A DNA stretch of 64,000 nt, from positions 31,778 through 95,777 of the IMG/VR virus record IMGVR_UViG_3300009174_000004. One strand, 5' to 3'. The stretch is from a virus (Duplodnaviria; Heunggongvirae; Uroviricota; Caudoviricetes). The position numbers and the translations under genes are program-made. How positions within the stretch are numbered: position 1 is the first letter of the stretch; the number at the start of each line of letters is the position of its first letter. A model generated the notes under the pieces. It did no database searches, was not told the DNA's origin, and worked only from the letters and a program-made list of their open reading frames with translations. Positions 3,873 to 41,128 of this stretch are shown here, piece by piece.

Positions 3873-3873
3873 G

Positions 3874-4960: not shown

Positions 4961-5037
4961 TTAAGGTTCCCTGGCATCAGTCTTCGCTGTGGAGCGAATC
5001 ACACACATCGGATCTCACTTCCGAACCAGGGAACCCG

Positions 5038-5110: not shown

Positions 5111-5118
5111 AGGCGGCG

Positions 5119-5741: not shown

Positions 5742-5815
5742 CTCCGGGTGCGAGACTCGAACTCGCAGGTTCCAGATCCAAAGTCTGGCCACGGACGCCG
5801 ATGCCGTACCCCGGA
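5742..5815 (-). tRNA. tRNA-Gln (anticodon TTG)
   Basis: Acceptor TCCGGGG/ACCCGGA (U1-A72) with discriminator G. Perfect anticodon arm CCAGA-CTTTGGA-TCTGG. T arm GCGAG-TTCGAGT-CTCGC. Confidence 0.6.
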
Positions 5816-5970
5816 TTAACTGTCCTCGTCGACTCCCTCCTCAAAGACAAGTTCCTCTGGGTAGCAGCCGAATTGGGCCTTGAACGACTCACGCTGGAAG
5901 GCGAGCGCCTCAGCGACCTGTTCCGGGTCCCCGGACAGGAGAGCCTGAAGTACTACCTCAGGACCCTTGT

Positions 5971-6138
5971 CTAGTCTGGCCACACCCAGCCTCGCTTCTC
6001 AGCATCATTCGCTGCGCGCTCGTACCAGTGGCCGCGTTCCTCTGGTGGAAGATCGAAGAACTCTGAGCCAGTTTCTTCTCTGGCTTTCTCGTACCAGTAG
6101 CTGCGTTCTTCTGCCGGTAGATCATGGAAATCAACCAT
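5971..6138 (-). CDS. hypothetical 55-aa protein with an internal tandem duplication
   Basis: Hand-translated: MVDFHDLPAEERSYWYEKAREETGSEFFDLPPEERGHWYERAANDAEKRGWVWPD. The duplicated unit is LPxEERxxWYE. The start abuts the 3' end of tRNA-Gly. Confidence 0.4.
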   Translation of the reverse strand: MVDFHDLPAEERSYWYEKAREETGSEFFDLPPEERGHWYERAANDAEKRGWVWPD

Positions 6139-6139
6139 G

Positions 6140-6213
6140 TGCGGATGCCGGGGCTCGAACCCGATTCCTTCTGTTTGGAAGACAGACGTGCAAACCTGTT
6201 ACACCTCATCCAC
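6140..6213 (-). tRNA. tRNA-Gly (anticodon TCC)
   Basis: Acceptor GTGGATG/CATCCGC. Perfect anticodon arm TCTGT-CTTCCAA-ACAGA. T arm TCGGG-TTCGAGC-CCCGG. Confidence 0.6.
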
Positions 6214-6324
6214 GTTGCCCCAGTCACCCCACCTTGACTGGAACGCTTGCGTCCCGTGATGCTCCATTCACTAGACGCACTCCCGAGCACCTAGGCTCAT
6301 TCGTCTTTCTGGCCTTCCTAGGCG

Positions 6325-6399
6325 AGGACCGTACGGGGCTCGAACCCGCAATACTCCGACTTGAGAGGCCGGTGAGTTTACCAATTCCTCCAACGGTCC
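6325..6399 (-). tRNA. tRNA-Glu (anticodon CTC)
   Basis: Perfect acceptor GGACCGT/ACGGTCC. Anticodon arm CCGGC-CTCTCAA-GTCGG. T arm GCGGG-TTCGAGC-CCCGT. Confidence 0.6.
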
Positions 6400-6487
6400 A
6401 GACGTAAGGCAAGGAGTCAACCTGTCCAGGATTTCCTTCTGGTTGTTACCATCTTCATCCCGTTCACTCTCGGTTCCTTGCCCTACG

Positions 6488-6559
6488 TATCTCCTGACGG
6501 AATCGAACCGCCGCAGTCCGGGCTTCAACCGGATGCTCTACCACCTAAGCTAAGGAGAC
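6488..6559 (-). tRNA. tRNA-Phe (anticodon GAA)
   Basis: Acceptor GTCTCCT/AGGAGAT. D arm GCTT..GAGC. Anticodon arm TCCGG-TTGAAGC-CCGGA. T arm GGCGG-TTCGATT-CCGTC. Confidence 0.6.
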
Positions 6560-6595
6560 ATGGGGCACAAGATTCGTGCCCTTTGTGCTGTTGAA

Positions 6596-7021
6596 TCAGT
6601 TCGTTGGGTGCTGGAACCAGATCGAACTGCCGGAGTTCCCGGGAGGGAAGCAGCTTCCGAACCAGGCCCCTGCCCAACCTGACTGGGTGCAGTTCTTGAA
6701 CTGTCCCTGATAGACCGTGGCGATGGCCGTGCCGGAGCAGCCCGCGTTCTCGTAGATCGTTGCTGACCAGCCCCACGTGAGCTTCATCGACCCGATCTGA
6801 TCGTTGATCGCAGGACCGAAGGGAATGCATTGGCTCGAAGCTGGCGACGTCCAGTAGTAGGCGGGATTGCTGCCACCGGGCCAGGCGGCGTACCAGACGC
6901 AGATGTGGGTTGGTCCACACGCTTCTCCATGTGCTGATGCTGGGGCCTCGGCAGCCACTGCTATTCCCAGACCCAGGATCACAGCACCGATAGCCGCTGC
7001 GATCCTTCGACGAGCGCTCAT
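6596..7021 (-). CDS. secreted Cys-containing protein (signal peptide plus ~110-aa mature domain)
   Basis: From the internal Met: MSARRRIAAAIGAVILGLGIAVAAEAPASA, then a Cys/Trp/Gly-rich domain (GEACGPTHICVWY...CSGTAIATVYQGQFKNC). Confidence 0.5.
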   Translation of the reverse strand: MSARRRIAAAIGAVILGLGIAVAAEAPASAHGEACGPTHICVWYAAWPGGSNPAYYWTSPASSQCIPFGPAINDQIGSMKLTWGWSATIYENAGCSGTAIATVYQGQFKNCTQSGWAGAWFGSCFPPGNSGSSIWFQHPTN

Positions 7022-7059
7022 GCAAGCTCCTCTTCTTGGACTCAACAAAGCCTTGAAGG

Positions 7060-7125
7060 AAACCACGGCGGGATTCGAACCACGCATCTAGTGCGTCCAC
7101 CACTCTTCCGTTGAGCTACGTGATT
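7060..7125 (-). tRNA. degenerate tRNA-like element (66 nt) with acceptor, D and T-loop motifs but poor T and anticodon stems (possible TAG/CTA loop)
   Basis: Acceptor AATCACG/CGTGGTT. D arm GCTC-AACGGAA-GAGT. TTCGAAT present but with only 2-3 bp of T stem. Anticodon arm ACGC-ACTAGAT-GCGT. Confidence 0.25.
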
Positions 7126-7130
7126 TCCAG

Positions 7131-7202
7131 GGATCGCGATGGGACTCGAACCCACAACCCAGCGTTTTAGAAACGCCTGCTCTGCCGTTAAGCTACGCGA
7201 TC
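7131..7202 (-). tRNA. suppressor-type tRNA with anticodon CTA (reads UAG amber)
   Basis: Acceptor GATCGCG/CGCGATC. D arm GCTT-AACGGCA-GAGC. Anticodon arm GGCGT-TTCTAAA-ACGCT with canonical U33 and A37. T arm GTGGG-TTCGAGT-CCCAT. Confidence 0.55.
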
Positions 7203-7450
7203 GTCGATCCGTACCAGCTTGTGCAATCGAACTCGCAGTCCTCGATGATCAGGCAATTATCCCAGTCGAGATCTGCAACATGCTCCGAACCAAGCTCCTC
7301 AGCAACAATGCGCTCAGCAAACTCCCGAGGAGTTTCGTTGAACGGGGAGCCAAGCTCGAACCCTTCACGTTCGCCATCCACGTATATGGCGTGGCCGCAA
7401 CAACCGGTGTCGCAGCCGTACCGCTCGTGGTACACGACGACCTTCGTCAT
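7193..7450 (-). CDS. hypothetical Cys-rich protein (85 aa)
   Basis: Translation MTKVVVYHERYGCDTGCCGHAIYVDGEREGF... The 3' end overlaps the 5' end of the CTA tRNA by ~10 nt. Confidence 0.4.
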   Translation of the reverse strand: MTKVVVYHERYGCDTGCCGHAIYVDGEREGFELGSPFNETPREFAERIVAEELGSEHVADLDWDNCLIIEDCEFDCTSWYGSTIA

Positions 7451-7527
7451 GTTCCCTCCCCTCTTAGCTAAGGGATGGAGCCGGCGGGGGAGGGGTTACC
7501 TGTCCCCTAGGCTTCCCCACGCCGACG

Positions 7528-7600
7528 TGGACCTACCCGGACTCGAACCGGGAACCTCCTGTCTGCCAGACAGGTGCTCAACCAATTGAGCTATAAGCCC
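7528..7600 (-). tRNA. tRNA-Ala (anticodon GGC)
   Basis: Acceptor GGGCTTA/TAGGTCC with G3:U70. Perfect anticodon arm CCTGT-CTGGCAG-ACAGG. T arm CCCGG-TTCGAGT-CCGGG. Confidence 0.6.
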
Positions 7601-7762
7601 GCGTTCCCCGAAAGTATTGATACCAACGGCTTCAAGCCTGTGATCTCCACCGTGGCCAGGAGAACACCCAGTCGCGACTAGATGACTCCACTACCTTCGA
7701 GGTCGCCGCGAGGTCAGGGGATTGGGCTGATCATTCCCAACCCGAAGGCGCCTGCCTCAGTG

Positions 7763-7834
7763 TGGATCGAACCGGATTTGAACCGGCATCTCCCGCCCCA
7801 AATGCGGGGCTCTGCTCTCTTGAGCTACCAACCC
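7763..7834 (-). tRNA. tRNA with anticodon TTG (Gln by anticodon) but a G3:U70-bearing acceptor stem
   Basis: Acceptor GGGTTGG/TCGATCC (three G-U pairs including 3:70) with discriminator A. Perfect anticodon arm CCCGC-ATTTGGG-GCGGG. T arm GCCGG-TTCAAAT-CCGGT. Confidence 0.45.
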
Positions 7835-7946
7835 AGGCGACATACAGGACCCGGATACCGCCCTCGCTGACTATGGACCCCACCTCGCGATTCCATCCAC
7901 GGGAAGGAGGTTCGGACTCAGCAGTGCGTATGTCAGACACATGCCC

Positions 7947-8022
7947 GTCGGGACGGTCGGATTTGAACCGACGACCCCCTGGTCCCAAACCAGGTGCGCT
8001 AGACCAGACTGCGCTACGTCCC
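7947..8022 (-). tRNA. tRNA-Pro (anticodon TGG)
   Basis: Perfect acceptor CGGGACG/CGTCCCG. D arm GCGC..GCGC. Anticodon arm CCTGG-TTTGGGA-CCAGG. T arm GTCGG-TTCAAAT-CCGAC. Confidence 0.65.
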
Positions 8023-8194
8023 GTAAGTCCTAGCCTTGGTTCTGTGCTGCTCCATCTCGTCCATCTCCGGAACCCTGCTTACGCATTGTCGCCAGTGTCG
8101 GTATCTGGTATCGCATCTCGTCCCAAGGCTAGGACGTATACATGCTGTCCACTGTGGAGTTCTCAAATCACAGGTCCTCAGTTCCCCGAGGAAG

Positions 8195-8266
8195 CGCCGA
8201 TGCAAGGATTCGAACCCTGTCCGACCGGGTTGGAGCCGGTCATGCTTACCGTTACACCACATCGAC
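8195..8266 (-). tRNA. tRNA-Trp (anticodon CCA)
   Basis: Acceptor GTCGATG/CATCGGC. Perfect anticodon arm ACCGG-CTCCAAC-CCGGT. T arm CAGGG-TTCGAAT-CCTTG. Confidence 0.6.
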
Positions 8267-11651: not shown

Positions 11652-11951
11652 ATGATATGGGCCTCCTTGCTCCTTGTCACCCTGGCCGTCGCCAGGATTA
11701 CGAGGCTGGTAACGACGGACCGCATCATGGTGAGCTTTCGCCGTTGGGTCGTGAATCGTTGGGGCGAGGAATCTGAGGCCGCCTATCTAGCTCATTGCCG
11801 GTGGTGCGCCAGTATCTGGATTGCAGTGCCGGCTGCTGTTGGTTGGGCAATGCTCACTCTTCCTCTTCACCTGTGGTGGCTGGCTGGGCCAGCCTGGTTG
11901 GCTATGTCTCACGTGACTGGCCTGCTGTCCAGACTGGAGGAGCAGGACTAG
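11652..11951 (+). CDS. small membrane protein with an HCRWCASIW motif (possibly DUF1360-like)
   Basis: Two or three hydrophobic helices. The stop abuts the portal start. Confidence 0.45.
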   Translation: MIWASLLLVTLAVARITRLVTTDRIMVSFRRWVVNRWGEESEAAYLAHCRWCASIWIAVPAAVGWAMLTLPLHLWWLAGPAWLAMSHVTGLLSRLEEQD

Positions 11952-13895
11952 ATGGCTTGGAAGAGGAGCAACAACGCGCTGGCCGTTGTCTCAGATACCC
12001 CAGCGCCCGCCCGTCGTTCCCTACTCGCCAGCGCAATGCACATGAGAATGGACCAACAGTCCTACAACTCATGGCGCTTCAATGACGAAACGTGGCAGCG
12101 GGAGCTATGGCGCCTGTACGACATCGTCCCCGAGTTCGGCTTTGCTGCCCGATGGGTGGGGCACTGCTGCTCGCGCGTCCGCATTTACGTAGCGAAGGTT
12201 GATGACCTCGGCCGAGTTCAAGGTGAAGCAAAACAGGCCAAGATCACGGCCCTGAGCGATTCCCTTTTCGGTGGCCCTGCTTCCAAGGCTGAGGCGCTAC
12301 GGAACATGGGCATTGACCTGACCGTGGCCGGTGAGTGCTACATCGTCGGCCGCCCCGGTGACGACGACGATCAGGACGAGTGGTACGTCCTGTCTTCATC
12401 GGAGATGCGACGAATTCGCGGCGCCAACGGGGAGTGGAACTGGGGCTGGTGTGGGCCCGGACAGCCCATGAAGATCGACCTTACCCGGAACTTAGTCACC
12501 CGGGTTTGGACCCCGCACCCCCAGCGGGTCTGGTGCGCCGACGCTCCCTCCAGGTCCTGTCAGCCCACGCTGCGGCTGCTGGAGCAGTTAAACAAGTACA
12601 TCTTCTCGCAAATAGACTCTCGCCTCGTCGGTGCCGGCCTGTTGATCATGCCTAACAACGTGGACCTGCCCGACGACCCGAACCTCAGTGCCGGCGAGTC
12701 GCTGATGCAGCGGATGGCCACCGCCGGTGCCGCCAGCCTGCGAGGCGAAGGATCTGCCCTGGGCGTCCTTCCCATGATCATTGAGTCGGAGAATGCCGAA
12801 GGCTGGAAGCTTCTCAGTTTCGAGTCTGAGCTTTCCAAGCAGGCCATCGAGCTTCGTAAAGAGGCCGTCGAGCGCCTGGGTGTCGGCATGGACATGCCCC
12901 CCGAGGTCCTTACGGGGCTAGGCGACGCCAACCACTGGCAGGGCTACCTGGTCGATGGTCAAGGCATCAAGGTTCACATCGAACCGTTGATGACAAGGAT
13001 CTGCGACGCCCTCACCAAGGCCTATCTGAAGCCCGCCCTCAAGCTCATGGGCGAGGACCCGAAGCGCTTCACCTACGCCTACGACACCAGCCCCCTGGTC
13101 GTACGACCCCAGCGCCTGCAGGATGCGCTGAACCTGTACGAGAAGGGCGCCATCAGCCTGCAGGCCCTGCGTGAGGCCGGGTACTTCAAGGAGTCGGACG
13201 CTCAGACCGAGGACGAGAGCGCCGGGCTGCTGACCAAGGAAGTCCTGCTCCGCGACCCTCAGCTATTCCAGAACGCGGCCGTCCGCCATGCCGCTGGAAT
13301 CCCCGAGAGCGTCATTCCACAGACCTCAATGGTTGCCCCCACGGCCCAAAGCATCAGCATGGGACCCGGAGGGGCTATTGGTGGTGGCGGAGGATCTGGC
13401 CCCCCACCTCCGCCACCACCGCCCACCGGAATCATGGACGAGGGCCCTCAGCCCATCCCTCAGACGCCGATGAATCCGGCCACCCGCGAGTCGCCGGATA
13501 TGGGTCCTCCGCCGAATGGCCTAGCAGCTTCTGCCTGGACCACCCAGGAGATGGGCGTCGTTGTCCTGGCCGAGGCAACGGTGCGCCGAGGGCTGGAGCT
13601 AGCCGGCAAGCGGCTGCTGACCAACCAGAACCGACACCGGTTCCCGGACGTACCTCACATGGAACTGCACACCCGCATCACGGTGCAGGACCAGGCGCAT
13701 GCCAACCGACTGCTCCTTGGCGCCTGGAGCCAGTTGGACGCCATGACCAAGTTCGTGGCCGACGACTTCGACACCGCGCGCCTGCAGCAGAGCCTGACCA
13801 AGTACTGCTCCACCCTGCTCGTTCGAGGCATTGCCCACGACCCACCGAGCCTGCTGGCGGCGCTCCAGCGGGATGGCGTCGTCCATGCCAAGTAA
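11952..13895 (+). CDS. putative portal protein (647 aa) with a C-terminal Gly/Pro-rich tail
   Basis: Size and position immediately upstream of the MuF-like and prohead-protease genes. No Walker A motif, so not a terminase. Poly-Gly/Pro tract GGGGGSGPPPPPPPPTG near the C-terminus. Confidence 0.5.
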   Translation: MAWKRSNNALAVVSDTPAPARRSLLASAMHMRMDQQSYNSWRFNDETWQRELWRLYDIVPEFGFAARWVGHCCSRVRIYVAKVDDLGRVQGEAKQAKITALSDSLFGGPASKAEALRNMGIDLTVAGECYIVGRPGDDDDQDEWYVLSSSEMRRIRGANGEWNWGWCGPGQPMKIDLTRNLVTRVWTPHPQRVWCADAPSRSCQPTLRLLEQLNKYIFSQIDSRLVGAGLLIMPNNVDLPDDPNLSAGESLMQRMATAGAASLRGEGSALGVLPMIIESENAEGWKLLSFESELSKQAIELRKEAVERLGVGMDMPPEVLTGLGDANHWQGYLVDGQGIKVHIEPLMTRICDALTKAYLKPALKLMGEDPKRFTYAYDTSPLVVRPQRLQDALNLYEKGAISLQALREAGYFKESDAQTEDESAGLLTKEVLLRDPQLFQNAAVRHAAGIPESVIPQTSMVAPTAQSISMGPGGAIGGGGGSGPPPPPPPPTGIMDEGPQPIPQTPMNPATRESPDMGPPPNGLAASAWTTQEMGVVVLAEATVRRGLELAGKRLLTNQNRHRFPDVPHMELHTRITVQDQAHANRLLLGAWSQLDAMTKFVADDFDTARLQQSLTKYCSTLLVRGIAHDPPSLLAALQRDGVVHAK

Positions 13896-14607
13896 GGGGG
13901 CTGAGGAGTCGGTGTTCAAGGCTGCGTCTACGGGACTGAAGCGGTGGCTCAACCGCGCCCGTGATGCCGTCATGGCCCCGTTCCGCCAGTTCAAGGCGCA
14001 GCCGAATCCGCAGGCCATCACCGCCACTGTTCCGGCGTGGCAGGCGCAGGTTGACCGGATCATCGCTGCCCTGACCCCGGCGCTGCAGGAGGGCTGGGCC
14101 GGCGCCCATCTTCCTGGCGACTATGACCCGCGTGACCCGTACATCCAGGCGAATCTGGCGCTGACCTACAACCTATTGGTCCGGATCCCAGACGAGGTTC
14201 ACGCCAAGGTGGTGGCCCAGATCCTTGAGGGCACCAACGCCGGGGAGACCGTCGATCAGATCGCTCATCGGGTCGAGCAGGTCCTGACCTACACCGGCAG
14301 CGAGAACTGGGATGGGCGGGCCAGGCTCATCGCCCAGACGGAGACAACTCGTCACGCCGCTAGTTCCATGCTGGCCCATGCCCTACTGGTCGCGAAGCAG
14401 GACAAGCGCTCACTGGAGAAGCGCTGGGACACGATCATGGACGATCGCGAACGCGACGCTCACCGCCACGTGAATGGTCAGACAGTTCCCCTTGGTCAGC
14501 CATTCCTCGTCGAAGGTTTCCCGATGATGCACCCAGGCGACCCTAAGGCGCCGCCGAACCTCGTATGCGGCTGCCGTTGCTCCCTACATATCCAGGAGGT
14601 GGCCTGA
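13873..14607 (+). CDS. MuF-like / SPP1 gp7-family head morphogenesis protein (short form, ~245 aa)
   Basis: C-terminal signature DDRERDAHRHVNGQTVPLGQPF...HPGDPKAPPNLVCGCRCSL matches D-x-R-x-R-x2-H ... P-x-H ... N/G-C-R-C. Start chosen at the Met just past the portal stop. Confidence 0.65.
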   Translation: MASSMPSKGAEESVFKAASTGLKRWLNRARDAVMAPFRQFKAQPNPQAITATVPAWQAQVDRIIAALTPALQEGWAGAHLPGDYDPRDPYIQANLALTYNLLVRIPDEVHAKVVAQILEGTNAGETVDQIAHRVEQVLTYTGSENWDGRARLIAQTETTRHAASSMLAHALLVAKQDKRSLEKRWDTIMDDRERDAHRHVNGQTVPLGQPFLVEGFPMMHPGDPKAPPNLVCGCRCSLHIQEVA

Positions 14608-32530: not shown

Positions 32531-34222
32531 ATGGAATTCGAGATCCCCGAGGCTTCCAGCCTTCCTCGGTTCACGGTCGCGGCTCTTCGTGACCTGGGCC
32601 TTGAGGCCGCCGCCACCTATGACGCTATCCGCGAGACCCTGACCCCCGAATCAGCCACCGACGAAGACCTAGACGACCTCGAAGACCTGTCGGCCTTCAT
32701 GGTCCTGTGCGACGACGAACTGTCCAAGCGCCGCGATCGTGCCGGCCGCTTCAACGCCCTCCCAACGGCCATGGCCGACGAGGACGAGGAAGACGACAAC
32801 GCCGACGAGGAAGACGCAGAAGACGCAGAGGCCTCGATGGCTCCTGCCCCTGCCGCCAAGGGCAAGAGGTCGAGCACTAGCTACGCCGCTGATGTTTCCC
32901 GGCTTCCTTCGGTGAGCGACATCGCCGCTTCTGGCAACCAGGTCCTTGAGGGTGAGGTCGTCACCGACGAGGACAACAGGCCACAGTTCCGCATCCTGGC
33001 GGCTGCCGACACCGGCTTCTCGGCCGGACAGGAACTGGACGGCTGGCTGGACGTGGCCAAGGCCTTCGTCGCCCGGTCGCGCACCCACGGTGGTGGCACC
33101 GCCCAGCAGAGCACCGTCGCCACGATTCGTCGCGAGTTCGGCAGCGACTTCTCCGTCAGCGACGGCGACGACGACGTCACGATCATGCAGAAGATCGACT
33201 TCGCTCGGGACGAGAAGCGTCTCCCCGGCGGGTCCCTGCTCGCTGGTGTTGGCTGGTGTGCCCCGTCCGAGACGATCTACACCACCTGCAACCAGATCAC
33301 GACCGACGGTCTGCTGTCCTTGCCTGAGATCGGCGCCCGTCGTGGCGGCATCCGGCACAACCAGGGCATCCAGTTCGACACGATCTTCGGCTCGGGTACC
33401 GGCTTCAACATCCTGACTGAGGCCCAGGTCATCTCCGACACCACCAAGACCTGTGTCGCCATCCCATGTCCAGCGTTCGTGGACGACCGGCTCAAGGTCG
33501 CGGCCCTGTGCCTCACCGGCGACATCCTGCAGAACCGGGGCTACCCCGAGTTCGTCAGCGAGTTCGTCCAGGGCGCCATCGCTGCCCAGGCCCACAACGT
33601 CAACCGTCAGATCATCGCTGACATCGTCACCGACTCCACCGCCGTCGACCTGACTGCCTGCGCTCCGTGGAACGTGGATCTATCGGTCGTGTCCCAGGTC
33701 ATGTCGGCCGTGGAAGTTGCCACCGTCGACATCCAGTACCGGCTGCGTCTGCAGCGGGACCAGACCCTGGAGGTCGTGTTCCCGTACTGGCTCAAGGCTC
33801 AGATGCGGGCTGACTGGATCCGGCGCAACGGCCCCATGGACCCCGACCTGGCCGACAGCCAGATCGAGGCGCTCCTGCGGACCAGGCACGCTCGGCCACA
33901 GTGGATCTACGACTGGCAGGACTCCTTCACCAGCACCGGCGTTTCCGGTGGTCCATTCCCCGGCTCGGACGTTCCGATCTGTGCCCTGCCCACTCAGGTC
34001 AAGTTCCTGATCTACCCGGCCGGCACCTGGGTCGTGGCTCGCCAGGACGTCATCCGGCTCGACACCATCTACGACAGCGTCAACATCACCACCAACAAGG
34101 TGACTCAACTCTTCCTCGAAGATGGCTTCCGAGCTATGAGGTTCTGCCCCGTCTCCAGGGTCTACACGATCAACATCTGCTCAAGCGGTAGCACCGGTGT
34201 GCAGCGGGTCGTGACCTGCTAA
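32531..34222 (+). CDS. putative major capsid protein (HK97-like) with an acidic scaffold/delta-like N-terminal region
   Basis: Position after the protease/scaffold gene. The N-terminal ~120 aa are highly acidic (DEDLDDLEDL...DEDEEDDNADEEDAEDAEA). The remainder is globular (…GIRHNQGIQFDTIFGSGTGFNILTEAQVISDTTKTC…). Start chosen at the Met with GAGAGG 12 nt upstream; the ORF track begins at 32513. Confidence 0.45.
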   Translation: MEFEIPEASSLPRFTVAALRDLGLEAAATYDAIRETLTPESATDEDLDDLEDLSAFMVLCDDELSKRRDRAGRFNALPTAMADEDEEDDNADEEDAEDAEASMAPAPAAKGKRSSTSYAADVSRLPSVSDIAASGNQVLEGEVVTDEDNRPQFRILAAADTGFSAGQELDGWLDVAKAFVARSRTHGGGTAQQSTVATIRREFGSDFSVSDGDDDVTIMQKIDFARDEKRLPGGSLLAGVGWCAPSETIYTTCNQITTDGLLSLPEIGARRGGIRHNQGIQFDTIFGSGTGFNILTEAQVISDTTKTCVAIPCPAFVDDRLKVAALCLTGDILQNRGYPEFVSEFVQGAIAAQAHNVNRQIIADIVTDSTAVDLTACAPWNVDLSVVSQVMSAVEVATVDIQYRLRLQRDQTLEVVFPYWLKAQMRADWIRRNGPMDPDLADSQIEALLRTRHARPQWIYDWQDSFTSTGVSGGPFPGSDVPICALPTQVKFLIYPAGTWVVARQDVIRLDTIYDSVNITTNKVTQLFLEDGFRAMRFCPVSRVYTINICSSGSTGVQRVVTC

Positions 34223-34282
34223 CAGGCATGAGGGGGCTGGGCCAACCGGTCCAGCCCCTCGCTACCTGAGGGAGGTGGGTTC

Positions 34283-35128
34283 ATGGCGAGCTTGACGGGA
34301 CCGGTTTATGTACCGGCTCCCAATCCGCTCCTGCCCCGGTACGGCCTCTTCCAGGTCGCCACGGGGCCACTGGACCTTCCCATCAATGCCCGCACGGGTG
34401 GCCTCCAGTACGAGATCTCGACCTGCGTTCTCCCCAAGGAGTACGAGGTCGAGTGCCAGGAAACCCACAACAGCAAGGTCATCAACAGCGGCGTCACGAC
34501 TGTTACGGGCGCCCCCTTCATCGTCTATTCAGCGATCCAGTGCGACACCGTGGGTCTGGTCAACTGGGGCCAGGAACGGGTGCAGAAGTTCCTCTACGAC
34601 CAGCTTGTTGCGGGCGAGCAGGCCACCGTCGAGAGCATCTTCTCCCAGGGCCTGGTGGCGCAGACACCCAGCTTGCAAGGCGCCACGAATCTAGGCACAG
34701 CCGTGGGTCCGGTGCATGCCATAGCCAAGCTGGAGTCCTGGCTCTATGCCAGATATGGCCTTAAGGGCGTCATCCATGCTCCTGTCTTCGCTGCGCCGTA
34801 TCTGAGTGGCTCGCATGCCATCGACCGCGAAGGTCCGTACGGCAGCGAGGAGTGGTACACGGACATGCGCACCTGCGTGTCCCTGGGTAACTACGCCAAC
34901 ATCGGGCCCACGGGTAGTGCTGCTGCCGCCGGAGAGGCCTGGATCTACATCACCGGTGCGGTGGCTATCTGGCGCACACCGGACAACGACCTCTTCGTCC
35001 CTCCCATGGGCCAGGTCATCAACCGGACCACGAACGTCCTGACCATCGTCATGGAGCGCGAGTACATCGTGACCTACGACTGTTTCGCTGCTGCCGTACT
35101 AACAACCTTGAGTACAACGGATCGATAA
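34283..35128 (+). CDS. capsid-associated structural protein (possible second HK97-fold paralog or decoration protein)
   Basis: Synteny. C-terminus ...GEAWIYITGAVAIWRT...NRTTNVLTIVMEREYIVTYD resembles the P-domain end of capsid proteins. Confidence 0.35.
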   Translation: MASLTGPVYVPAPNPLLPRYGLFQVATGPLDLPINARTGGLQYEISTCVLPKEYEVECQETHNSKVINSGVTTVTGAPFIVYSAIQCDTVGLVNWGQERVQKFLYDQLVAGEQATVESIFSQGLVAQTPSLQGATNLGTAVGPVHAIAKLESWLYARYGLKGVIHAPVFAAPYLSGSHAIDREGPYGSEEWYTDMRTCVSLGNYANIGPTGSAAAAGEAWIYITGAVAIWRTPDNDLFVPPMGQVINRTTNVLTIVMEREYIVTYDCFAAAVLTTLSTTDR

Positions 35129-35425
35129 ATGCCACTGATGCGCAACTACACGGAGATCATCGTTGAGGAAGGGCTCCTTCCTCAGATCGTCCGTGAGCTT
35201 GTGGACATGGCTATCGACCAGAACCACGTCGAGGTGACCTACGGAGTGGCAGGACGGGTGATCTTGGTTCATCCCGACCTGGCGGAGAAGTGGTACCAGG
35301 AGAAAGTTGCTCAAGCAGAAGACCCGCAAGATGTGCCTATTCCGGTTCCTGTCGTAAGGGAGCCAGGACAACCGAGGAACATCGCAGCCTCCGCTTCGAA
35401 TGGCGAGGAGCCCCCCGATGACTAG
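35129..35425 (+). CDS. hypothetical virion/head-tail protein (98 aa)
   Basis: ORF track and position in the structural operon. Confidence 0.4.
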   Translation: MPLMRNYTEIIVEEGLLPQIVRELVDMAIDQNHVEVTYGVAGRVILVHPDLAEKWYQEKVAQAEDPQDVPIPVPVVREPGQPRNIAASASNGEEPPDD

Positions 35426-36113
35426 CACCTGTTTCACCCCGTTCAAGATTCCTCGGATCCGCGTCACCAAGCTGAACTCCTGCGGCCAGGTGGTGACGGG
35501 CTCCTGCTCACAGGTTGTGTCCGACGGAATCATTTCCATCGAGATGACGAAGAACTACGAGGACCGGGAAGAGTTCTTCGTCAAGAACGGTGACGGTCAG
35601 TTCTGCGTGCGTGAGACCAACGCTCCGCAGTTGAAGTGGATCGACCTCGTCATCACGATGTGTAACGTCGACCCAGATATCGTCAACCTTGTTGCTGCAG
35701 AACCTTTGTACACAGACGACTCTGCTGCCGCAGTAAAGATCGGTTGGTCCACCACCGAAGGCTCAACGGCCAACGTGAACTTCGCCCTCGAAGGGTGGAC
35801 TCGACTATCTGGCTCTGGGGTCGCGTGTACTGGTGGCACGCAGTACGGATATGTCCTTTTCCCATGGGTCGTGGAGGGCACCATCGGTGACATGACCCTG
35901 GAAAACGGCGTCGCCAACTTCGTGGTCAACGCCCGCACCCACAGCAGTTCGCTCTGGGGCGTCGGTCCGTACAACGTTGACCTATCAGATGCTGCTGGCA
36001 CACTGAACAACCCGATCCCGATGCTCACGCCGATCCTGAGCACCCAGCATCACCGCATGTTCATCACCCGGCTGGCACCACCAGCGGCTGCTTGTGGCTG
36101 TGCAGCGGTGTAA
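35418..36113 (+). CDS. hypothetical head-tail connector/neck protein
   Basis: Start chosen at the ATG with GAGGAG 8 nt upstream. Synteny. Confidence 0.4.
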   Translation: MTSTCFTPFKIPRIRVTKLNSCGQVVTGSCSQVVSDGIISIEMTKNYEDREEFFVKNGDGQFCVRETNAPQLKWIDLVITMCNVDPDIVNLVAAEPLYTDDSAAAVKIGWSTTEGSTANVNFALEGWTRLSGSGVACTGGTQYGYVLFPWVVEGTIGDMTLENGVANFVVNARTHSSSLWGVGPYNVDLSDAAGTLNNPIPMLTPILSTQHHRMFITRLAPPAAACGCAAV

Positions 36114-36196
36114 TTGATACAGCAAGCATCAGCCACTAGTTGCTTGTACAAGCAAATAAACTTGGTCAATGCTTCGAGACCGGGAGGGGGCCCAGA

Positions 36197-36997
36197 ATGA
36201 CCATCAGTTCTGGGCCCTGCACCTGGCCCGACCTGACACAAATCTGCTGCTCAGAAGACTGGGCAACGTTCAGTCCCGCCGTCACTGGCGCAGCCGTAAA
36301 CTACGCCACGGCCTTCGTTTGGATGGCCACGGGCAGGCAGTTCGGTCTCTGTGAGTTGACCGTGCGTCCCTGCGGTCGCTTCTGCCAGGACTGCCCCTCG
36401 GGCTGGTTCTACGACGGGTACGGGTCATTCCAGCCGTACACCTTCAACGGGCAGTGGAAGAACTGCTGGTGTGGCCAGGACTCCGGCTGCTGCACCTGCG
36501 ATCCCGCGTGCCAGGTGTACCTACCTGGCCCGGTGAACTCTATTGTGCGAGTAACTGTTGATGGCGCAACTTTACCGGCAACAGGAAGTTACTTCGTCCT
36601 AGACCAGATGTGGCTAGTCCGAACCGACACCACGGCGTGCTGGCCGACGTGCTCGGACCAGAGCCTGTACCCGGGTGATCCCAATGCGTTCGAGGTCACG
36701 TACCTGCGTGGTCGCGAGGTGCCACTTGCGCTTGCGCAAGCAACTAGTGGCCTTGCCTGTGAGTTTGCGCGAGCGTGCCTGGGGTTGCCCTGTCGCCTGC
36801 CGAGCAGGATCACCTCCCTGTCGCGACAGGGAGTAACGGTCTCCTTCGCCGACATCTCCGATGTACTGAAGAACGGCCTTAGCGGGCTCTGGGAATTGGA
36901 CCAGTTGATCATGGCCTATAACCCCTACGGGATCAAGGGCCAGACTCGGATGTACTCGCCGGATCTGCAGGTACCGCGCCAAGTCACCTGGCCGTAG
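36197..36997 (+). CDS. Cys-rich structural protein (about 20 Cys; CxC and CC motifs)
   Basis: Translation contains CGRFCQDCPSGW...NCWCGQDSGCCTCDPACQVY. RBS GGGAGGGGG upstream of the ATG at 36197. Confidence 0.45.
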   Translation: MTISSGPCTWPDLTQICCSEDWATFSPAVTGAAVNYATAFVWMATGRQFGLCELTVRPCGRFCQDCPSGWFYDGYGSFQPYTFNGQWKNCWCGQDSGCCTCDPACQVYLPGPVNSIVRVTVDGATLPATGSYFVLDQMWLVRTDTTACWPTCSDQSLYPGDPNAFEVTYLRGREVPLALAQATSGLACEFARACLGLPCRLPSRITSLSRQGVTVSFADISDVLKNGLSGLWELDQLIMAYNPYGIKGQTRMYSPDLQVPRQVTWP

Positions 36998-37005
36998 GTG
37001 AACCC

Positions 37006-37548
37006 ATGACCGGTCCCATCGTCAGGCTCAACGACATCGCCACCCTGCTGCTCAGTTGCCTGTGCGAGGCAGTCAGCGGCAATGCGAACCCGCCCCTGAA
37101 CTGCTGCCTGCGCGTGGGTGACCAGGTAACCCACGACGTGGACATCACCACCGACCTCTGCTGCGAGGGCCTGGCCTACGTCAGCGTGGGTGACATCTTC
37201 CCGGTCGTGGACAGCTTCCCCGAGCAGAGCATCGTGTCCCAGGCCAACCAAAAGTGCTCCTTCCCGTCCTGGGCCGTGAACCTCAAGATGGGCATTATCC
37301 GATGTGCCCCACTTGGTACCAATACCATGATGCCCACGTGCGCCGACTGGACCGAGGCAGCGTTCCAGAACCTGGTGGACGCCCAGTCATTGGCCACTGC
37401 CGCCTGCTGCTTCAAGGAGAACTGGCTAGTCCTGGAGCCTGGATTCAACGTCGTCATTGGCGTGAACAACACGGCCACGCCCAACGGTGGCTGCATGGAG
37501 CGCTCGATCTCGCTCATTGCCCAGGCCGCTGCCTGTCCGGAGTGCTAA
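37006..37548 (+). CDS. Cys-rich structural protein (180 aa)
   Basis: Translation contains LLSCLCEAVSG...NCCLRVGD...DLCCEGLAY...AACCFKENW...AAACPEC. Confidence 0.45.
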   Translation: MTGPIVRLNDIATLLLSCLCEAVSGNANPPLNCCLRVGDQVTHDVDITTDLCCEGLAYVSVGDIFPVVDSFPEQSIVSQANQKCSFPSWAVNLKMGIIRCAPLGTNTMMPTCADWTEAAFQNLVDAQSLATAACCFKENWLVLEPGFNVVIGVNNTATPNGGCMERSISLIAQAAACPEC

Positions 37549-38034
37549 ATGGCGGCGGATGTTCGCATCTTTCATGCTCGCCTAGCGTTCCAGACCAACC
37601 GCATGGCGAGTCGGTTCGTCAATCGGGTCTTGAACGAGATGCTGGCCGAGTCCAAGGTCATTGCCGCCGTGGGTCCCTATACCAGGGGAAACCTCGCGCG
37701 AAGCCTCCGCAAGATAGGTCCCAATGCGGTCGGCACCCTCATCGAGGGCCAAATCACCACCCACCTGTCCTACGCCAAGGCGGTGGAATCAGGTGCCAAG
37801 ATCCACAACATCTTCCCCAGGGGAGCACCTCACGTCTACCGGTTCGGAAAGGTACGACGCCCCGCCCTCAAGTTCGAGTGGCACGGACGCACGGTCTACG
37901 CCAACCAAATCCCCATGGCGATAAGCACGATAGGCATATCCCATCCCGGCCAGAAGGCGAAGCATTACCTCCTCACGCCACTCAAGCACGCTGCCGTCCG
38001 CCACAGGCTCAAGATTGTCGTCTACGAGACGTAA
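37549..38034 (+). CDS. candidate major tail (tube) protein (161 aa)
   Basis: Position immediately upstream of the chaperone pair and tape measure. Size is compatible with small siphovirus tube proteins. Confidence 0.35.
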   Translation: MAADVRIFHARLAFQTNRMASRFVNRVLNEMLAESKVIAAVGPYTRGNLARSLRKIGPNAVGTLIEGQITTHLSYAKAVESGAKIHNIFPRGAPHVYRFGKVRRPALKFEWHGRTVYANQIPMAISTIGISHPGQKAKHYLLTPLKHAAVRHRLKIVVYET

Positions 38035-38052
38035 TGCGTCTAGTATCTCGGC

Positions 38053-38403
38053 ATGACTAACCCAGACCCTGGACGAGAGACCCGCATCGTTCCCGTACAA
38101 GGACGAAACATCGTCATCAGGCAACTGATTGACGCCCAGATGATGCTGCTCAACCGTGGCGCTCGGCTACTGCAGCGTGATGACGTCGACAGAGCCAGCA
38201 AGTTAGCCACGGTGGACCGCATGTTCACCATCCTGGAATCCGTGGTTGTGCAGCCCGAGGATAAAGAGTTCCTGGAGGACCTCATGGCCGAGGGCACGCT
38301 GAGCCTCAGCGACCTGATGAGCTTCATCAGCGCCTTCAATGAGGACCAGCCGGACGAGAAGCCAAAGGTCCGTCGTGGCCGTCCGGCGATCAAGCGCAGC
38401 TAG
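38053..38403 (+). CDS. tail assembly chaperone (G-like)
   Basis: Small acidic protein directly upstream of the tape-measure-like gene. A frame-overlapping partner ORF follows. Confidence 0.5.
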   Translation: MTNPDPGRETRIVPVQGRNIVIRQLIDAQMMLLNRGARLLQRDDVDRASKLATVDRMFTILESVVVQPEDKEFLEDLMAEGTLSLSDLMSFISAFNEDQPDEKPKVRRGRPAIKRS

Positions 38404-38977
38404 ATCGTCTGTTCCATCCGCCGAAGAGGGCAGGGTCCAGGTCCCGAGGCTGAACACGGACCCAGTGTGGTCCTTGCGGCCATGGCCTATCGAGATTGAG
38501 GTAGCCGGGACGGCTATTGAAGTGCCTCCCATGTGCGCCACGGATTGGCTCTGCTATCTGATGCAAGCCGAACCCGATATCGACACTCTCATCAGCGAGA
38601 TAGTTCCCGATCTTGAAGATCTGGTTTACGACGGGGCCATCCGCCTTGACCAGGTCTACGACGTCGTGATGGAAATCATCTCGTGTGCAGCAGCACGCCC
38701 CTGGTGGGTGAGCCTGCGCCTCATCTCCGTCGCCAGGTACCAGTGGGACATCCTCGGGCCCGAGCTTCTAGCACGTGGGGCCGATCCCAATACCCAGTCC
38801 CTGTCGGGCTGGCTCGACGTGCTCCTGGTGACCATCCTCGGCGCCATGGATCCGAAGAAGACCACCATGTTCCTCATGCAGCTAGAGGCAGTTCCTGACA
38901 CGGTGAAGGACCCTGGCAAGGACGTCTTCGACGAGATGGAAATGGATACGGGTGCCTTCCTTTCTCTGGGCGGTTAG
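38339..38977 (+). CDS. tail assembly chaperone extension (GT-like) in the +1 frame relative to 38053..38403; probable programmed frameshift product
   Basis: 65-nt overlap with the upstream gene in a different frame. The downstream part is protein-like. Classic position upstream of the tape measure. Confidence 0.4.
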   Translation: MRTSRTRSQRSVVAVRRSSAARSSVPSAEEGRVQVPRLNTDPVWSLRPWPIEIEVAGTAIEVPPMCATDWLCYLMQAEPDIDTLISEIVPDLEDLVYDGAIRLDQVYDVVMEIISCAAARPWWVSLRLISVARYQWDILGPELLARGADPNTQSLSGWLDVLLVTILGAMDPKKTTMFLMQLEAVPDTVKDPGKDVFDEMEMDTGAFLSLGG

Positions 38978-39046
38978 TTACACTGATCACCAGCGTCGCT
39001 TAGCCTTGCTCGCGCGCATCACTGGGTACCGAGAGGTGGTGTTGTC

Positions 39047-41128
39047 GTGAGTGCGCCCATTGGCGAGGTCCGGGTTGAAGTCCGTGGCGACACCTCCAAG
39101 GTCGATCCTGACATCGAAAAGGGCCTCCGGGCCGCTGCCAACGACGCTGACCCTGAGCTAAAGCGAATCGGCAAGGACTTCGGCGACACCATCAGCAACT
39201 CGATGGAAAAGGAGATCGAGAAGCACGGGCCCTCCTTCGTCCATGCCGTCGAGAAAGGCACATCGAGGAACCCGGCCAACATCGACTGGAACCTTGACAC
39301 CGACCGCAACACCGTCCAGAGGGAAGTAGCCAGTCTCGGACGAAGCATCGAGCGCGAGGTCAAGGCCCTCAGTAGCGGTGGTAACGGTAAGGGTCCCTTT
39401 GGTCTCATCGGTGCAGCCATCGCCGACGCTGTCGGCGCCGGCTTCAACATCTCAGGCAAATCACCCCTGATCTTGGCCCTAGTGCCGCTGTTCGGCTTCA
39501 TCGCCGAGCTAGTGATCGGCCTGGTCCAGGCCATCAATGCACTGTCGGCTGCCCTGTTCGTGGTGCCGAGCCTTATCGGCGCCATCATCCTGCAGGTGGG
39601 CGTCCTTTATGTCGCCTTCCAGGGTCTTGGAACTGCCATCCAGGGCGCTTTTGCAGCCAAGAATGCCGACGAACTGAAGAAGGCTCTGGAGGGGCTGACT
39701 CCCGCTGCACAGGAGTTCGTCAAGACCCTGCTGCCCCTGAGGGACGCCTTCAAGGCCATTCGTGACATCGTCCAGGAGCAGTTCTTCGAGCAGTTCGGCA
39801 ACTCGATCACCGTCCTAACGAAGAGGCTGATCCCGTTCCTTGACGCCAACCTGGGCACCGTGGCGGCAGCGCTCGGCAGCTTGGCCCGGACCATCGTCAC
39901 CTTCTTCGGTGACCCAGCGTTTACCCAGTTCTTAGGCACCCTCATTCCAGCCACGATCAACTGGATCAGGGAGCTTGAACCGGCCCTGTCGAAGTTCCTC
40001 TTCGGCCTGGCCTCCATCGGCACTGCCGTCACACCGTTCCTGGAGTGGGTCGGCACATCGTTGACCTCCAGCCTCGCCACCCTGGGTGACTGGCTCACCA
40101 AGCTCTCGTCGGACCCGGAGTTCCTGAAGTGGCTCGACGACATGAAGACGACCTTCAACGACCTGGGCAAGGTCATTGACTCCGTCGCCTTCTTCCTGTT
40201 CGCCTTGACCCGCGCCGTGGACCGAGCAGGTGGCAACAAGGTCCTGGAGGACATCGCCAACCAGTTGAACGCGGTTGCTGTGTTCTTGAGCACGGACATC
40301 GGAACCAAGGCCATTGAGGGTCTTATTCACGTCGTCGAGTTCCTGGCCTTCTCCTTCGCGTTCTTGGTGCTCGGCGTCCTAGCCCTGCTTGCGGCATTCG
40401 AGTTGGTCCTTGAGTTTCTGCGTCACGGGCTCTGGCCTTGGTTGACGGACTTCATCACCAACACCATCCCGGAGTTCTTTGAGTCCGTGGGCAAGGCCAT
40501 CATGGGCTTCTTCACCACGGTGGGCGAAGTCGTCAGTACCTACGTGAAGGGTTTGGGCCAGGCGTTCCTTGACCTAGGCGCCTTCATCTTGGAGTCCCTG
40601 TTCAACATCACCGGCTGGATCGTCACCCACGTCGCGCACTGGATCGATGTTGTCATCGACTTCTTCTCCAGTCTGCCCGGGAAAATCTGGGACGCCCTGG
40701 GGGATGTTGGAAACTTCCTCTTCGACGCTGGCAAGAAGCTGATCCAAGGCCTCATTGACGGTGTCATCTCCATGTACGACGCCCTGGGTCGAGCCGCACA
40801 CAATGCCGCTGCCGTCTTCCTGCAGTACTGGCCACTGTCCCCCGCCGAGGAAGGTCCTCTGTCCGGTAAGGGTGACCCGATGTACGCGGGCCAGAAGCTC
40901 ATTGACCGTCTGGTTACCGGTATGGAGATGGAGCAGCCGGCGCTGGCTGCAGCCACGAACAACATGGCCAGCACCGTGGTCTTCGGACCCAACTCGGTAC
41001 AAGCAACCTTCAATGGGCAGCTACCCACTAACAGTCAGGCCACGGCCCTTGGTGGAGCGCTGGGTGGAGGAATTGCGGGCCGACTAGCAGTACGTGATAC
41101 GCGCCTCGCCGTCAGATCCATGGCCTAA
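39047..41128 (+). CDS. tape measure-like protein (693 aa)
   Basis: Long central hydrophobic/TM-like stretches (PLILALVPLFGFIAELVIGLVQAINALSAALFVVPSLIGAIIL...), an alpha-helical N-terminus and a Gly-rich C-terminus. Position after the chaperone pair. Confidence 0.5.
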   Translation: MSAPIGEVRVEVRGDTSKVDPDIEKGLRAAANDADPELKRIGKDFGDTISNSMEKEIEKHGPSFVHAVEKGTSRNPANIDWNLDTDRNTVQREVASLGRSIEREVKALSSGGNGKGPFGLIGAAIADAVGAGFNISGKSPLILALVPLFGFIAELVIGLVQAINALSAALFVVPSLIGAIILQVGVLYVAFQGLGTAIQGAFAAKNADELKKALEGLTPAAQEFVKTLLPLRDAFKAIRDIVQEQFFEQFGNSITVLTKRLIPFLDANLGTVAAALGSLARTIVTFFGDPAFTQFLGTLIPATINWIRELEPALSKFLFGLASIGTAVTPFLEWVGTSLTSSLATLGDWLTKLSSDPEFLKWLDDMKTTFNDLGKVIDSVAFFLFALTRAVDRAGGNKVLEDIANQLNAVAVFLSTDIGTKAIEGLIHVVEFLAFSFAFLVLGVLALLAAFELVLEFLRHGLWPWLTDFITNTIPEFFESVGKAIMGFFTTVGEVVSTYVKGLGQAFLDLGAFILESLFNITGWIVTHVAHWIDVVIDFFSSLPGKIWDALGDVGNFLFDAGKKLIQGLIDGVISMYDALGRAAHNAAAVFLQYWPLSPAEEGPLSGKGDPMYAGQKLIDRLVTGMEMEQPALAAATNNMASTVVFGPNSVQATFNGQLPTNSQATALGGALGGGIAGRLAVRDTRLAVRSMA

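Follow-up and report, generated by a model that had tools for sequence, protein, structure and literature searches.

A giant cysteine-free protein encoded between the protease/scaffold and capsid genes in the head module of a Caudoviricetes virus

We analysed a window of 64,000 nucleotides from a virus of the class Caudoviricetes (IMG/VR record IMGVR_UViG_3300009174_000004, positions 31,778 to 95,777 of that record, one strand), with emphasis on a single gene of 5,043 codons, hereafter the giant, that lies in its head module between the gene of a protease/scaffold protein and that of the major capsid protein. According to the open reading frame (ORF) survey and the PHROG and Pfam scans, a block of plus-strand head genes fills the window from 11.6 to 35.1 kb (Table 1). 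Judged by gene content, the region is a conventional head-assembly operon of the Rosebush/phiAsp2 actinophage type with a variable slot between the protease/scaffold and capsid genes. Its backbone consists of a small protein, the portal, a short MuF protein and a protease of assemblin fold that also has accessory domains and a coiled coil; next come the variable slot, a gene of 49 aa and finally the capsid gene. A preliminary description of this DNA had listed the portal, the short MuF, the protease gene, the giant ORF, the capsid gene, a hairpin and an inverted repeat, and all of these were found at or near the positions it gave; it did not mention the two conserved small genes that separate the giant from the capsid gene. 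The same description regarded the order of the head genes as unusual, which did not hold up, as the same backbone is present in the Arthrobacter phage Ranunculus, the Actinoplanes phage phiAsp2, the Microbacterium phage SM23 and dozens of metagenomic contigs. In Ranunculus, the order is terminase, small gene, portal, a 912-aa fusion of MuF and protease (gp18), a 47-aa gene (gp19), capsid, a phrog_779-like gene, major tail protein and adaptor. In phiAsp2, the portal is followed by a free MuF (pas6), a protein similar to Rosebush gp13, six reverse-strand genes and the capsid gene. SM23, a siphovirus without a giant, has three small genes in the pre-capsid slot; its match in our database search was its protease gene. 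The small gene 5' of the portal occurs in Ranunculus and phiAsp2 and in two of the metagenomic loci (L055 and L058), and in the window the phrog_779 gene is followed by the major tail protein and then the head-tail adaptor. The window shares this backbone and PHROGs 776, 777, 779, 781, 783, 792 and 859 with the module of Rosebush (cluster B), phiAsp2 and the Arthrobacter AM-type phages, none of which, among the isolated phages, has a member of the giant's family in the slot. Since the order is ordinary for the lineage, only the content of the slot before the capsid gene is unusual.

Table 1. Coordinates of the head-module features in the window. Residue numbers are those of the giant protein.
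Feature	Coordinates	Strand	Basis or remark
Small head-module protein, 99 aa	11652..11951	+	phrog_781, weak DUF1360
Portal protein, 647 aa	11952..13895	+	phrog_776, E=3.6e-137
Short stand-alone MuF / SPP1 gp7-like minor head protein, 244 aa	13873..14607	+	Pfam Phage_Mu_F PF04233, E=4.5e-12
Assembly (protease/scaffold) protein, 759 aa	14607..16886	+	phrog_859, DUF6582, fold comparison
Giant gene, 5,043 aa, 0 Cys, net charge +258	16894..32025	+	ORF and comparative data
N-terminal motif W-R-P-E-L-H-P-R-D-S-H-G-R-F-R, residues 31-45	16984..17028	+	Family alignment
VIP2/Alt-type (R-S-E) ADP-ribosyltransferase domain, residues 84-234	17143..17595	+	Pfam PF03496
About 25-30 small (40-350 aa), mostly unique domains	17881..29610	+	Segmentation
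Conserved C-proximal region, residues 4240-4530	29611..30483	+	Family comparison
Anthrax-LF/PPEP/MtfA-like zinc metallopeptidase, residues ~4750-5037	31141..32004	+	Predicted fold and active site
Convergent gene, 53 aa	31997..32158	-	Overlaps last 29 nt of giant
49-aa gene (MCNCGKSGG...VKKK)	32245..32394	+	5' of capsid gene in all relatives
Promoter-like site TGGACA-17-TATTAT	32404..32432	+	Sigma-70-like, 10/12 consensus matches
Long imperfect 5'-UTR hairpin, 70 nt	32461..32530	+	MFE -32.9 kcal/mol, z=-4.0
Major capsid protein, 563 aa	32531..34222	+	NCBIfam NF033847 MCP_Sipho 462 bits; phrog_777 E=5e-125
Conserved head-module protein, 281 aa	34283..35128	+	phrog_779; syntenic with Ranunculus gp21 and phiAsp2 Pas15

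The giant starts with an ATG 7 nt after the preceding stop codon, and its Shine-Dalgarno sequence (GAGGAG) lies within the end of the preceding gene. In comparison to the closest relative, contig c26035, the giant has a dN of 0.074 and a dS of 0.41 over 3,786 codons, and the resulting dN/dS of 0.18 shows that the gene is under purifying selection. Values of dN for the portal, MuF and protease genes against the nearest relative, whose portal is 98% and capsid protein 94% identical to those of the window, are 0.007-0.011, so that the giant has a dN about seven times higher. All nine IMG/VR loci having a capsid protein 76-94% identical to that of the window (drawn from loci L003-L011 and L018) contain an ORF of more than 3,000 codons that ends 0.5-1.1 kb 5' of the capsid gene and runs off the 10-kb upstream flank. 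Once portal- and capsid-anchored loci were merged, unbroken frames of 4,318, 4,354, 4,448 and 4,804 codons were obtained, as well as one of at least 5,679 codons in L003. The window portal itself is 98-100% identical to those of five IMG/VR contigs (L027-L030 and L048). At least 15 related metagenomic contigs have a homologue of 4.3-7.6 thousand aa in the same slot, the giants of this size sitting in contigs of 87-158 kb; the protein of 7,635 aa (P0010) takes up 21.7% of a 105.7-kb JGI contig with identical synteny. Shorter versions of 1,366 and 1,437 aa are found in the same slot in contigs of 56-58 kb. The distance from portal end to capsid start, calculated from coordinates, is 16.9-24.5 kb in eight contigs versus 18.6 kb in the window. 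No part of the giant matched any NCBIfam model or PHROG, and tblastn of residues 1-260 and 329-5043 (approximately 98% of the protein) against 50,697 GenBank phage records gave no match at E<=1e-3. We also considered a plain low-complexity repeat, which was rejected, as the linkers rich in Ala, Pro and Lys make up just 15% of the residues and the other segments have near-zero internal paralogy. The codon usage of the giant differs from that of 13 other genes, with GCA and GCT accounting for 47% of its Ala codons (27% in the others) and CCA and CCT for 49% of its Pro codons (30%); for this reason phage-encoded tRNAs may help to translate it. An array of 22 tRNA genes lies just 5' of the head module on the minus strand (762-8266) and includes Ala (UGC, GGC), Pro (GGG, UGG), Glu and Arg tRNAs. 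One further observation on the array is the tRNA at 7130-7202, which has an amber-reading CUA anticodon and was labelled Pyl by ARAGORN.

The giant has a conserved N-terminal module, a variable middle and a conserved C-terminal part. Within the N-terminal motif and next to it, residues L35, H36, P37, R38, D39, G42, R43, F44, R45 and W48 are invariant in our alignment A5, and the HPRD-GRF motif is kept across 30 aligned family members. The ADP-ribosyltransferase (ART) domain that follows scored 26.0 bits with PF03496 (ADPrib_exo_Tox; cutoff 23.4) for residues 1-269 alone, and 22.5 bits when inside a 1,000-aa piece. In the window protein, Arg145 (LSRV) is retained and Thr218 occupies the position of a Glu, which we take to be the catalytic residue of the R-S-E family (G216-R217-T218-VIL compared to E-R-E-VLL in the related protein P0119). 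The Glu is kept in P0015, P0025 and P0041, and the Thr is found in the clade of the window, where ART catalysis has probably been lost. The middle, approximately 3,900 residues, contains at least 26 linkers rich in Ala, Pro and Lys (and partly Glu) between the domains, and 21 of these carry the motif (E)RP-x-V-(K/T)-R-A-A-x-K-K-V-A...APEA. In the other family proteins examined, linkers make up 5-16% of the residues. The DNA coding for the linkers forms dispersed repeat families that are just 60-90% identical, which indicates that the peptide pattern has been maintained rather than recently copied. No significant Pfam or PHROG match was found for the segments of the middle, and these have almost no similarity to one another. 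Collinearity among giants is confined to the N- and C-terminal anchors, and shared middle domains occur in differing order. Even near-identical phages differ by the replacement of a cassette, that of residues 3107-3441, with 46% identity by blastp and 63% over aligned codons. The conserved C-proximal region has the signature ...MHGDSP.M.LAQ.LA.R..NGSANKVM...LRLMRLEE.DP...YHESRDG, is kept at 44-57% identity in P0001, P0002, L003 and c04114, and is present in 25 of 152 family members; no PDB or Pfam match was found for it. In the C-terminal peptidase, the predicted zinc site consists of H4900, E4901, H4904 and E4972, with HExxH...E intact. The preliminary description had assigned toxin-like domains to this gene; those recognised here are the ART at its N-terminus and the lethal-factor (LF)-like peptidase at its C-terminus. 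Three more specific ideas on the protein were not supported. The linker motif RP-x-V-x-R-AA-KKVA as a universal cleavage or binding site is at odds with its 21 copies here and in the nearest relative and just 1-13 in other giants, and it is missing from the portal, MuF, protease and capsid proteins. Self-cleavage by a Pro-Pro endopeptidase, prompted by PPEP structural matches, does not fit with Pro-Pro dipeptides that are not enriched (25 observed versus 38 expected). A GrpE-like reading of the beta-rich segments at ~3395-3440 and ~4640-4690 had neither PDB nor Pfam support.

An exhaustive HMMER search with residues 1-260 gave at least 270 family representatives, 63 of them at E<1e-30. The family, characterised by an N-terminal W-x-P-E-L-HPRD-x-x-GRF motif, a VIP2/Alt-type ART and near-absence of Cys, is to all appearances undescribed. 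Nearly all of the 150 best matches listed have the ART module at their extreme N-terminus, and the lengths among the matches listed are mostly 1,300-2,400 aa, with eight of 3,110-7,635 aa. The exception is P0119, a portal protein having the ART at its C-terminus and lacking the HPRD motif, a fusion that physically links the ART module with the apparatus of head entry. Other relatives carry extra domains (NUDIX, PI3/4-kinase-like, Rho_N/HeH/SAP or a second ART). We then counted cysteines. The giant has none in 5,043 residues, compared to 78 in the 4,296 residues (1.8%) of 13 neighbouring virion-module proteins (P ~1e-40), among them the adaptor with 19 in 285 and the capsid protein with 11 in 563. 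In 152 members of the family, a total of 246,958 residues includes 25 cysteines, with 144 members free of them. The sole other large Cys-free protein of the virion module is the ORF of the tape measure protein (0 of 693 residues), a protein that exits through the tail tube. We infer that the giant would be free of Cys because it travels unfolded through the tail. The family N-terminal profile, when run against 185,579 species-representative genomes of bacteria and archaea, gave one distant locus (30% identity) in a contig of an Actinoplanes metagenome-assembled genome. In view of this single hit the phages look non-temperate, with no search for an integrase made outside the window. As for charge, the giant has a net value of +258, residues 1-130 of the capsid protein -23, and the protease protein -49. 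This pattern is compatible with recruitment into the procapsid and later DNA binding, and equally with a structural or DNA-condensing role.

The genes on either side of the giant are those expected of the module. The MuF protein covers the PF04233 profile to position 111 of 112, has a weak match to TIGR01641 and ends in ...VCGCRCSLHIQEVA*. The preliminary description had it ending exactly at a GCRC motif and free of a toxin; the absence of a C-terminal extension was borne out, and the motif (CGCRC, of the type CxCRC) lies 9 residues before the end. A free MuF of 242-249 aa is present in all relatives. A single PHROG, phrog_859, covers both the MuF protein (profile positions 150-289) and the next protein (381-800), so the two occur either fused or split. 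The start of this next gene is most likely the ATG at 14607 rather than at 14565, as it overlaps with the MuF stop codon (TGATG) and has AGGAGG 8 nt upstream. An AlphaFold2 model of the 759-aa protein, based on 44 homologues, has five confident elements. The first is a beta-rich N-terminal domain (residues 1-144, pLDDT >90) with the fold of assemblin/HK97/gp21 prohead proteases. It is followed by an alpha/beta domain (~180-320), DUF6582 (~390-445), a second conserved beta domain (~475-630; phrog_18402/29860), and a 43-residue acidic coiled-coil helix (685-727) with a short conserved C-terminal helix (...IFIQYNARYQALAEE). The assemblin fold was found by fold comparison alone; a sequence-profile search against the PDB did not detect it, and the Pfam scan gave no S78 or U35 match for the domain. 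H45 and S94 are near-invariant (at least 90% conserved in the 44 homologues) with a spacing of 49, which we take to be also the spacing of His65 and Ser114 in HK97 gp4. The preliminary description had seen in this gene an HK97-type protease with a 600-aa scaffold-like tail. The protease part stands, and the tail turned out to be largely composed of the domains listed above, with a coiled coil of only ~75 residues. In most relatives, the assembly protein is split into two genes of ~400 and ~420 aa, and L040 has it fused. In L046, the two genes of the pair are separated by an inserted ORF of 224 aa with 17 Cys (13810-14481), possibly a mobile element such as a homing-endonuclease-type gene.

Between the giant and the capsid gene there are two small genes, neither of which has a family match. 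Homologues of the 53-aa convergent gene (MADELPEGVESETI...TNKDEAVTAEV...) are located at the corresponding place in L006, L007, L010, L011, L018 and L055. The 49-aa gene (MCNCGKSGGAPAESYVV...GGTITVKKK) has its counterpart in gp19 of Ranunculus, which has no giant, and by its distribution is a conserved component of the present type of head module. Promoter-like hexamers are found at the same relative position in ten relatives, with differing sequences. The inverted repeat TGATCAAG-N10-CTTGATCA (32415-32440) overlaps the promoter-like site of the window and is common only to the near-identical L004. The hairpin AAAAGGC-TGTGT-GCCTTTT (32483-32501), which the preliminary description called terminator-like, is the tip of the 70-nt stem in the 5' untranslated region (5'-UTR), and the 3' arm of this stem holds the capsid Shine-Dalgarno sequence GAGAGG (32515-32520). 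The layout of the stem is the same in ten relatives (L005-L011, L018, L055 and L058), with z-scores from -4.0 to +0.75 and slight covariation; RNAalifold gave -5.8 kcal/mol with few compensatory changes for the conserved stem. Both the hairpin and the AT-rich palindrome described previously do exist 5' of the capsid gene, and the hairpin was not scored as a terminator. No intrinsic terminator was called on the plus strand in a scan of 30000-40000, the sequence after the hairpin (CCCTTCTTC) has no proper U-run, the hairpin lies 3' of the promoter-like site, and the stem had no Rfam match. An intrinsic terminator and a known RNA family were thus both rejected. The capsid gene probably has its own promoter, and the stem may be a translational operator or a site of RNase processing, for which the statistics give weak support. 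Given the promoter-like site and the possible translational or processing control through the stem, separate control of the capsid gene is plausible, as had been proposed; the promoter-like site recurs in the 10 relatives, and the convergent gene stands between giant and capsid. The first 130 residues of the capsid protein (32531-32920) are strongly acidic (…MADEDEEDDNADEEDAEDAE…) and presumably form a delta or scaffolding domain facing the interior. The best match of the capsid protein among isolated phages is that of phiAsp2 (44% identity), and the label of Streptomyces phage in the preliminary description is tentative.

Two side observations concern genes further 3'. The head-tail adaptor (36140-36997, +) with its 19 Cys, of which the adaptors of relatives have 17-19, is followed by a phrog_810 protein with 14 Cys in 180 aa (37006-37548, +), which points to a connector stabilised by disulfides or metal. 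Beyond the tail genes, two glycosyltransferase-like genes, one methyltransferase-like gene and one nucleotide-sugar-epimerase-like gene (46244-47332, 48300-49274, 49271-50476 and 54507-55574; all +) may modify virion or host glycans.

We somewhat favour, at little better than even chance, the explanation that the giant is an encapsidated, tail-translocated polyvalent effector. The giant would be transcribed and translated together with the late head genes, in keeping with the 7-nt gap and the Shine-Dalgarno sequence within the previous gene. It would then be built into the procapsid, with the N-terminal motif perhaps serving as a targeting or anchoring peptide and the charge of +258 perhaps being drawn to the acidic interior made of the capsid N-termini (-23 each) and the protease/scaffold protein. 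At infection, it would be threaded unfolded through the tail with the DNA; this step is suggested by the absence of disulfide-forming residues, the beads-on-a-string build, and the tape measure protein being the only other large Cys-free protein of the virion module. In the host, the giant would act as a polyvalent early effector or DNA escort. Its peptidase would act on host proteins, on the chain itself to free the modules, or on both; binding of nucleic acid or of host defence factors would fall to the basic linkers and small domains; and the ART of the window clade may have a role in binding or packaging. That the middle evolves fast and as a mosaic fits with an arms race with hosts, and the pattern of domain shuffling suggests host-interaction or anti-defence functions.

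The closest precedent is that of the polyvalent proteins, large phage and plasmid proteins of 2-15 domains with metallopeptidase (MPTase) and ART hubs, for which packaging and injection have been predicted (Iyer, Burroughs, Anand, de Souza, Aravind 2017; PMC5512222). Like these, the giant combines unrelated effector-type domains in one polypeptide beside head and packaging genes, has a zincin-like, lethal-factor-related MPTase with HExxH and a downstream Glu, and has a mosaic, fast-evolving architecture; co-delivery with DNA is predicted for the polyvalent proteins and may, by analogy, apply here. It differs in having ~30 segments, with relatives of up to 7,635 aa, and in its ART, which is of the ADPrib_exo_Tox kind (VIP2/C2/C3 type) and not of the Tox-ART-HYD2 clade; the HPRD-GRF motif, the protease-capsid slot, the Cys-free make-up and the A/P/K linkers are not described for those proteins (PMC5512222). 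Large or enzymatic late proteins that are loaded into the head and then discharged into the host are also known in T4 Alt (an ART), P1 DarB and the N4 virion RNA polymerase (PMC13434306, PMC5512222), the last having 3,500 aa, being ejected (PMC13434306) and containing an LF-like MPTase domain (PMC5512222). In contrast to these, no polymerase, methylase or helicase domain was found in the giant, homology is at superfamily level only, and ejection of the giant is a proposal. The Microbacterium cluster EK phages and Burro have giant genes of 13.5 kb coding for more than 4,400 aa, with a virion-associated band of ~250 kDa in Burro (Jacobs-Sera et al. 2020; PMC7302621). These are likewise actinophage genes next to head genes, divergent between relatives and with few recognisable domains, and they make up 20-25% of the genome. 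However, they belong to podoviruses and lie 5' of the portal, whereas the window is of siphovirus type with its gene between protease and capsid, and the family here is larger (7,635 aa). Homology to the EK and Burro genes was rejected by the tblastn search given above, and we treat them as a functional analogue.

Several points weigh against packaging and injection. Presence in the virion and entry into the host are read from the position in the head operon, which is circumstantial. To our knowledge, a protein of 540 kDa far exceeds any shown to cross a siphovirus tail. With no PHROG, NCBIfam or GenBank phage match to any part of the giant, no characterised homologue anchors its function. Since the ART lacks the catalytic Glu in the clade of the window, the giant may have just one working effector domain rather than two, and the R-S-E (VIP2/Alt) type of ART was not seen among true polyvalent proteins by Iyer et al. 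(PMC5512222). Finally, the basic charge and the position of a scaffold gene fit a structural role in the capsid equally well.

Such a structural role is the main rival of the injected effector, although we consider it unlikely. On this view the capsid would contain the giant as a core, scaffold or DNA-condensing (histone-H1-like) protein that organises a large capsid or neutralises the packaged DNA, and that either stays inside or is destroyed by the prohead protease. The gene sits where scaffolding genes normally are and is translationally coupled to the protease/scaffold gene, the protein is strongly basic with PAKKA/KKAAP-type linkers common to all giants, and it would have acidic partners in the capsid interior. 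Versions of ~1.4 thousand aa occur in the 56-58-kb contigs, compared to 4.3-7.6 thousand aa in the 87-158-kb contigs. Within the large-contig group, however, the size of the giant does not follow that of the contig (7,635 aa in 105.7 kb and 4,318 aa in 118 kb), and the idea of a capsid-size ruler is weakened for this reason. The middle is hypervariable and shuffled between phages with 76-94% identical capsid proteins, unlike scaffold or core proteins, and domains of enzyme type (the intact peptidase here, NUDIX and kinase-like domains in relatives) would be unexpected in a scaffold. Moreover, Ranunculus, SM23 and phiAsp2 assemble the same type of capsid without a giant.

The preliminary description had read the region as a MuF polymorphic-toxin locus whose cargo was separated from MuF and greatly enlarged; on such a model, the giant would be a MuF-dependent toxin aimed at competing bacteria. 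We find this improbable. The model can draw on the metallopeptidase and ART C-terminal domains that are common in MuF toxins (PMC5576092), both types being in the giant, on the fusions of MuF to a VIP2-type ART in Microbacterium phages (PMC7302621), on the homology of the portal-ART fusion P0119 to the giant's N-terminal module, and on the MuF gene two genes 5' of the giant. The MuF polymorphic toxins (Jamet et al. 2017; PMC5576092) and the MuF-VIP2 fusions (PMC7302621) are similarly head-module proteins with an ART or metallopeptidase that are presumed to be virion-associated. The giant is 10-20 times larger than these, is separate from the short MuF and has its conserved ART, without the catalytic Glu, at the N-terminus, in phages that are apparently non-temperate with one distant hit in the bacterial and archaeal genomes. 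Pfam and PHROG scans of the whole giant gave no MuF domain. A short MuF is in any case the canonical majority architecture (952 of 1,515; PMC5576092). In the present lineage, MuF is either free, as in phiAsp2 without any giant (pas6), or joined to the protease in one polypeptide (phrog_859; Ranunculus gp18), and is never fused to a toxin; therefore nothing indicates that the giant is a detached MuF cargo. Where MuF toxins have an immunity gene, the 3' neighbours of the giant are the 53-aa and 49-aa genes, which look like conserved head-module genes (the 49-aa gene is also present in giant-less Ranunculus) rather than variable immunity genes, and no immunity gene is evident. The model thus appears to fail on three defining features, namely that the toxin shares its polypeptide with MuF, that the phage is temperate and that an immunity gene is clearly present. 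Related phages, whose comparison the preliminary description had recommended, have conserved synteny and a variable content of the slot, with no MuF-toxin fusion in the lineage.

We give a similarly low probability to a late protein that stays outside the virion, such as a cytoplasmic multi-domain hub or condensate former that organises a replication or assembly factory or sequesters host factors. The low-complexity linkers and the many small putative binding domains would suit such a hub, there is no detectable transmembrane segment or known capsid-targeting signal in the giant, and its presence in the virion is hypothetical. On the other hand, a cytoplasmic role does not explain the family-wide avoidance of Cys, nor the strict position in the head operon across divergent phages with translational coupling, and the N-terminal module is homologous to a portal fusion. 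Lastly, a non-coding or decayed region that lacks stop codons by chance in GC-rich, A-skewed DNA has a negligible probability, since the lower GC3 of the giant (0.71 versus 0.79 in neighbouring genes) and its strong AT skew are set against the dN/dS of 0.18, a frame intact over 4,300-7,600 codons in many independent contigs, confidently folding domains (pLDDT 85) and invariant catalytic residues, so that the comparative data already refute it.

A bolder form of the injected-effector explanation, which we hold only tentatively and consider doubtful as a whole, is that the giant is the founding example of a new phage class, that of injected polyproteins. In this form a Cys-free chain of ~30 modules would enter the capsid by way of its N-terminal HPRD-GRF/ART anchor, would be threaded through the tail together with the genome and would be cut at the linkers by its own C-terminal LF-like peptidase, releasing anti-defence, host-takeover and DNA-coating factors ahead of all phage gene expression. 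If this were true, the shuffled cassettes would be a fast-evolving library of counter-defence modules, and the family, with up to 7,635 residues, would include the largest known phage protein. What appears to be new here, as far as the sequences go, is a large and fast-evolving family of Cys-free head-module proteins. A single gene takes up 10-22% of the genome in these phages, a cost that calls for a large pay-off. Such ORFs may be discarded as low-complexity artefacts during gene calling and annotation, with Pfam covering just the ART domain, and each giant holds ~30 unannotated small domains, which amounts to hundreds over the at least 270 family representatives. If packaged and injected, the giant would stretch the presumed size limit for passage through a siphovirus tail, the largest documented case being the 3,500-residue N4 polymerase. 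The family-wide loss of Cys against a Cys-rich virion background could also flag tail-translocated cargo in other phages.

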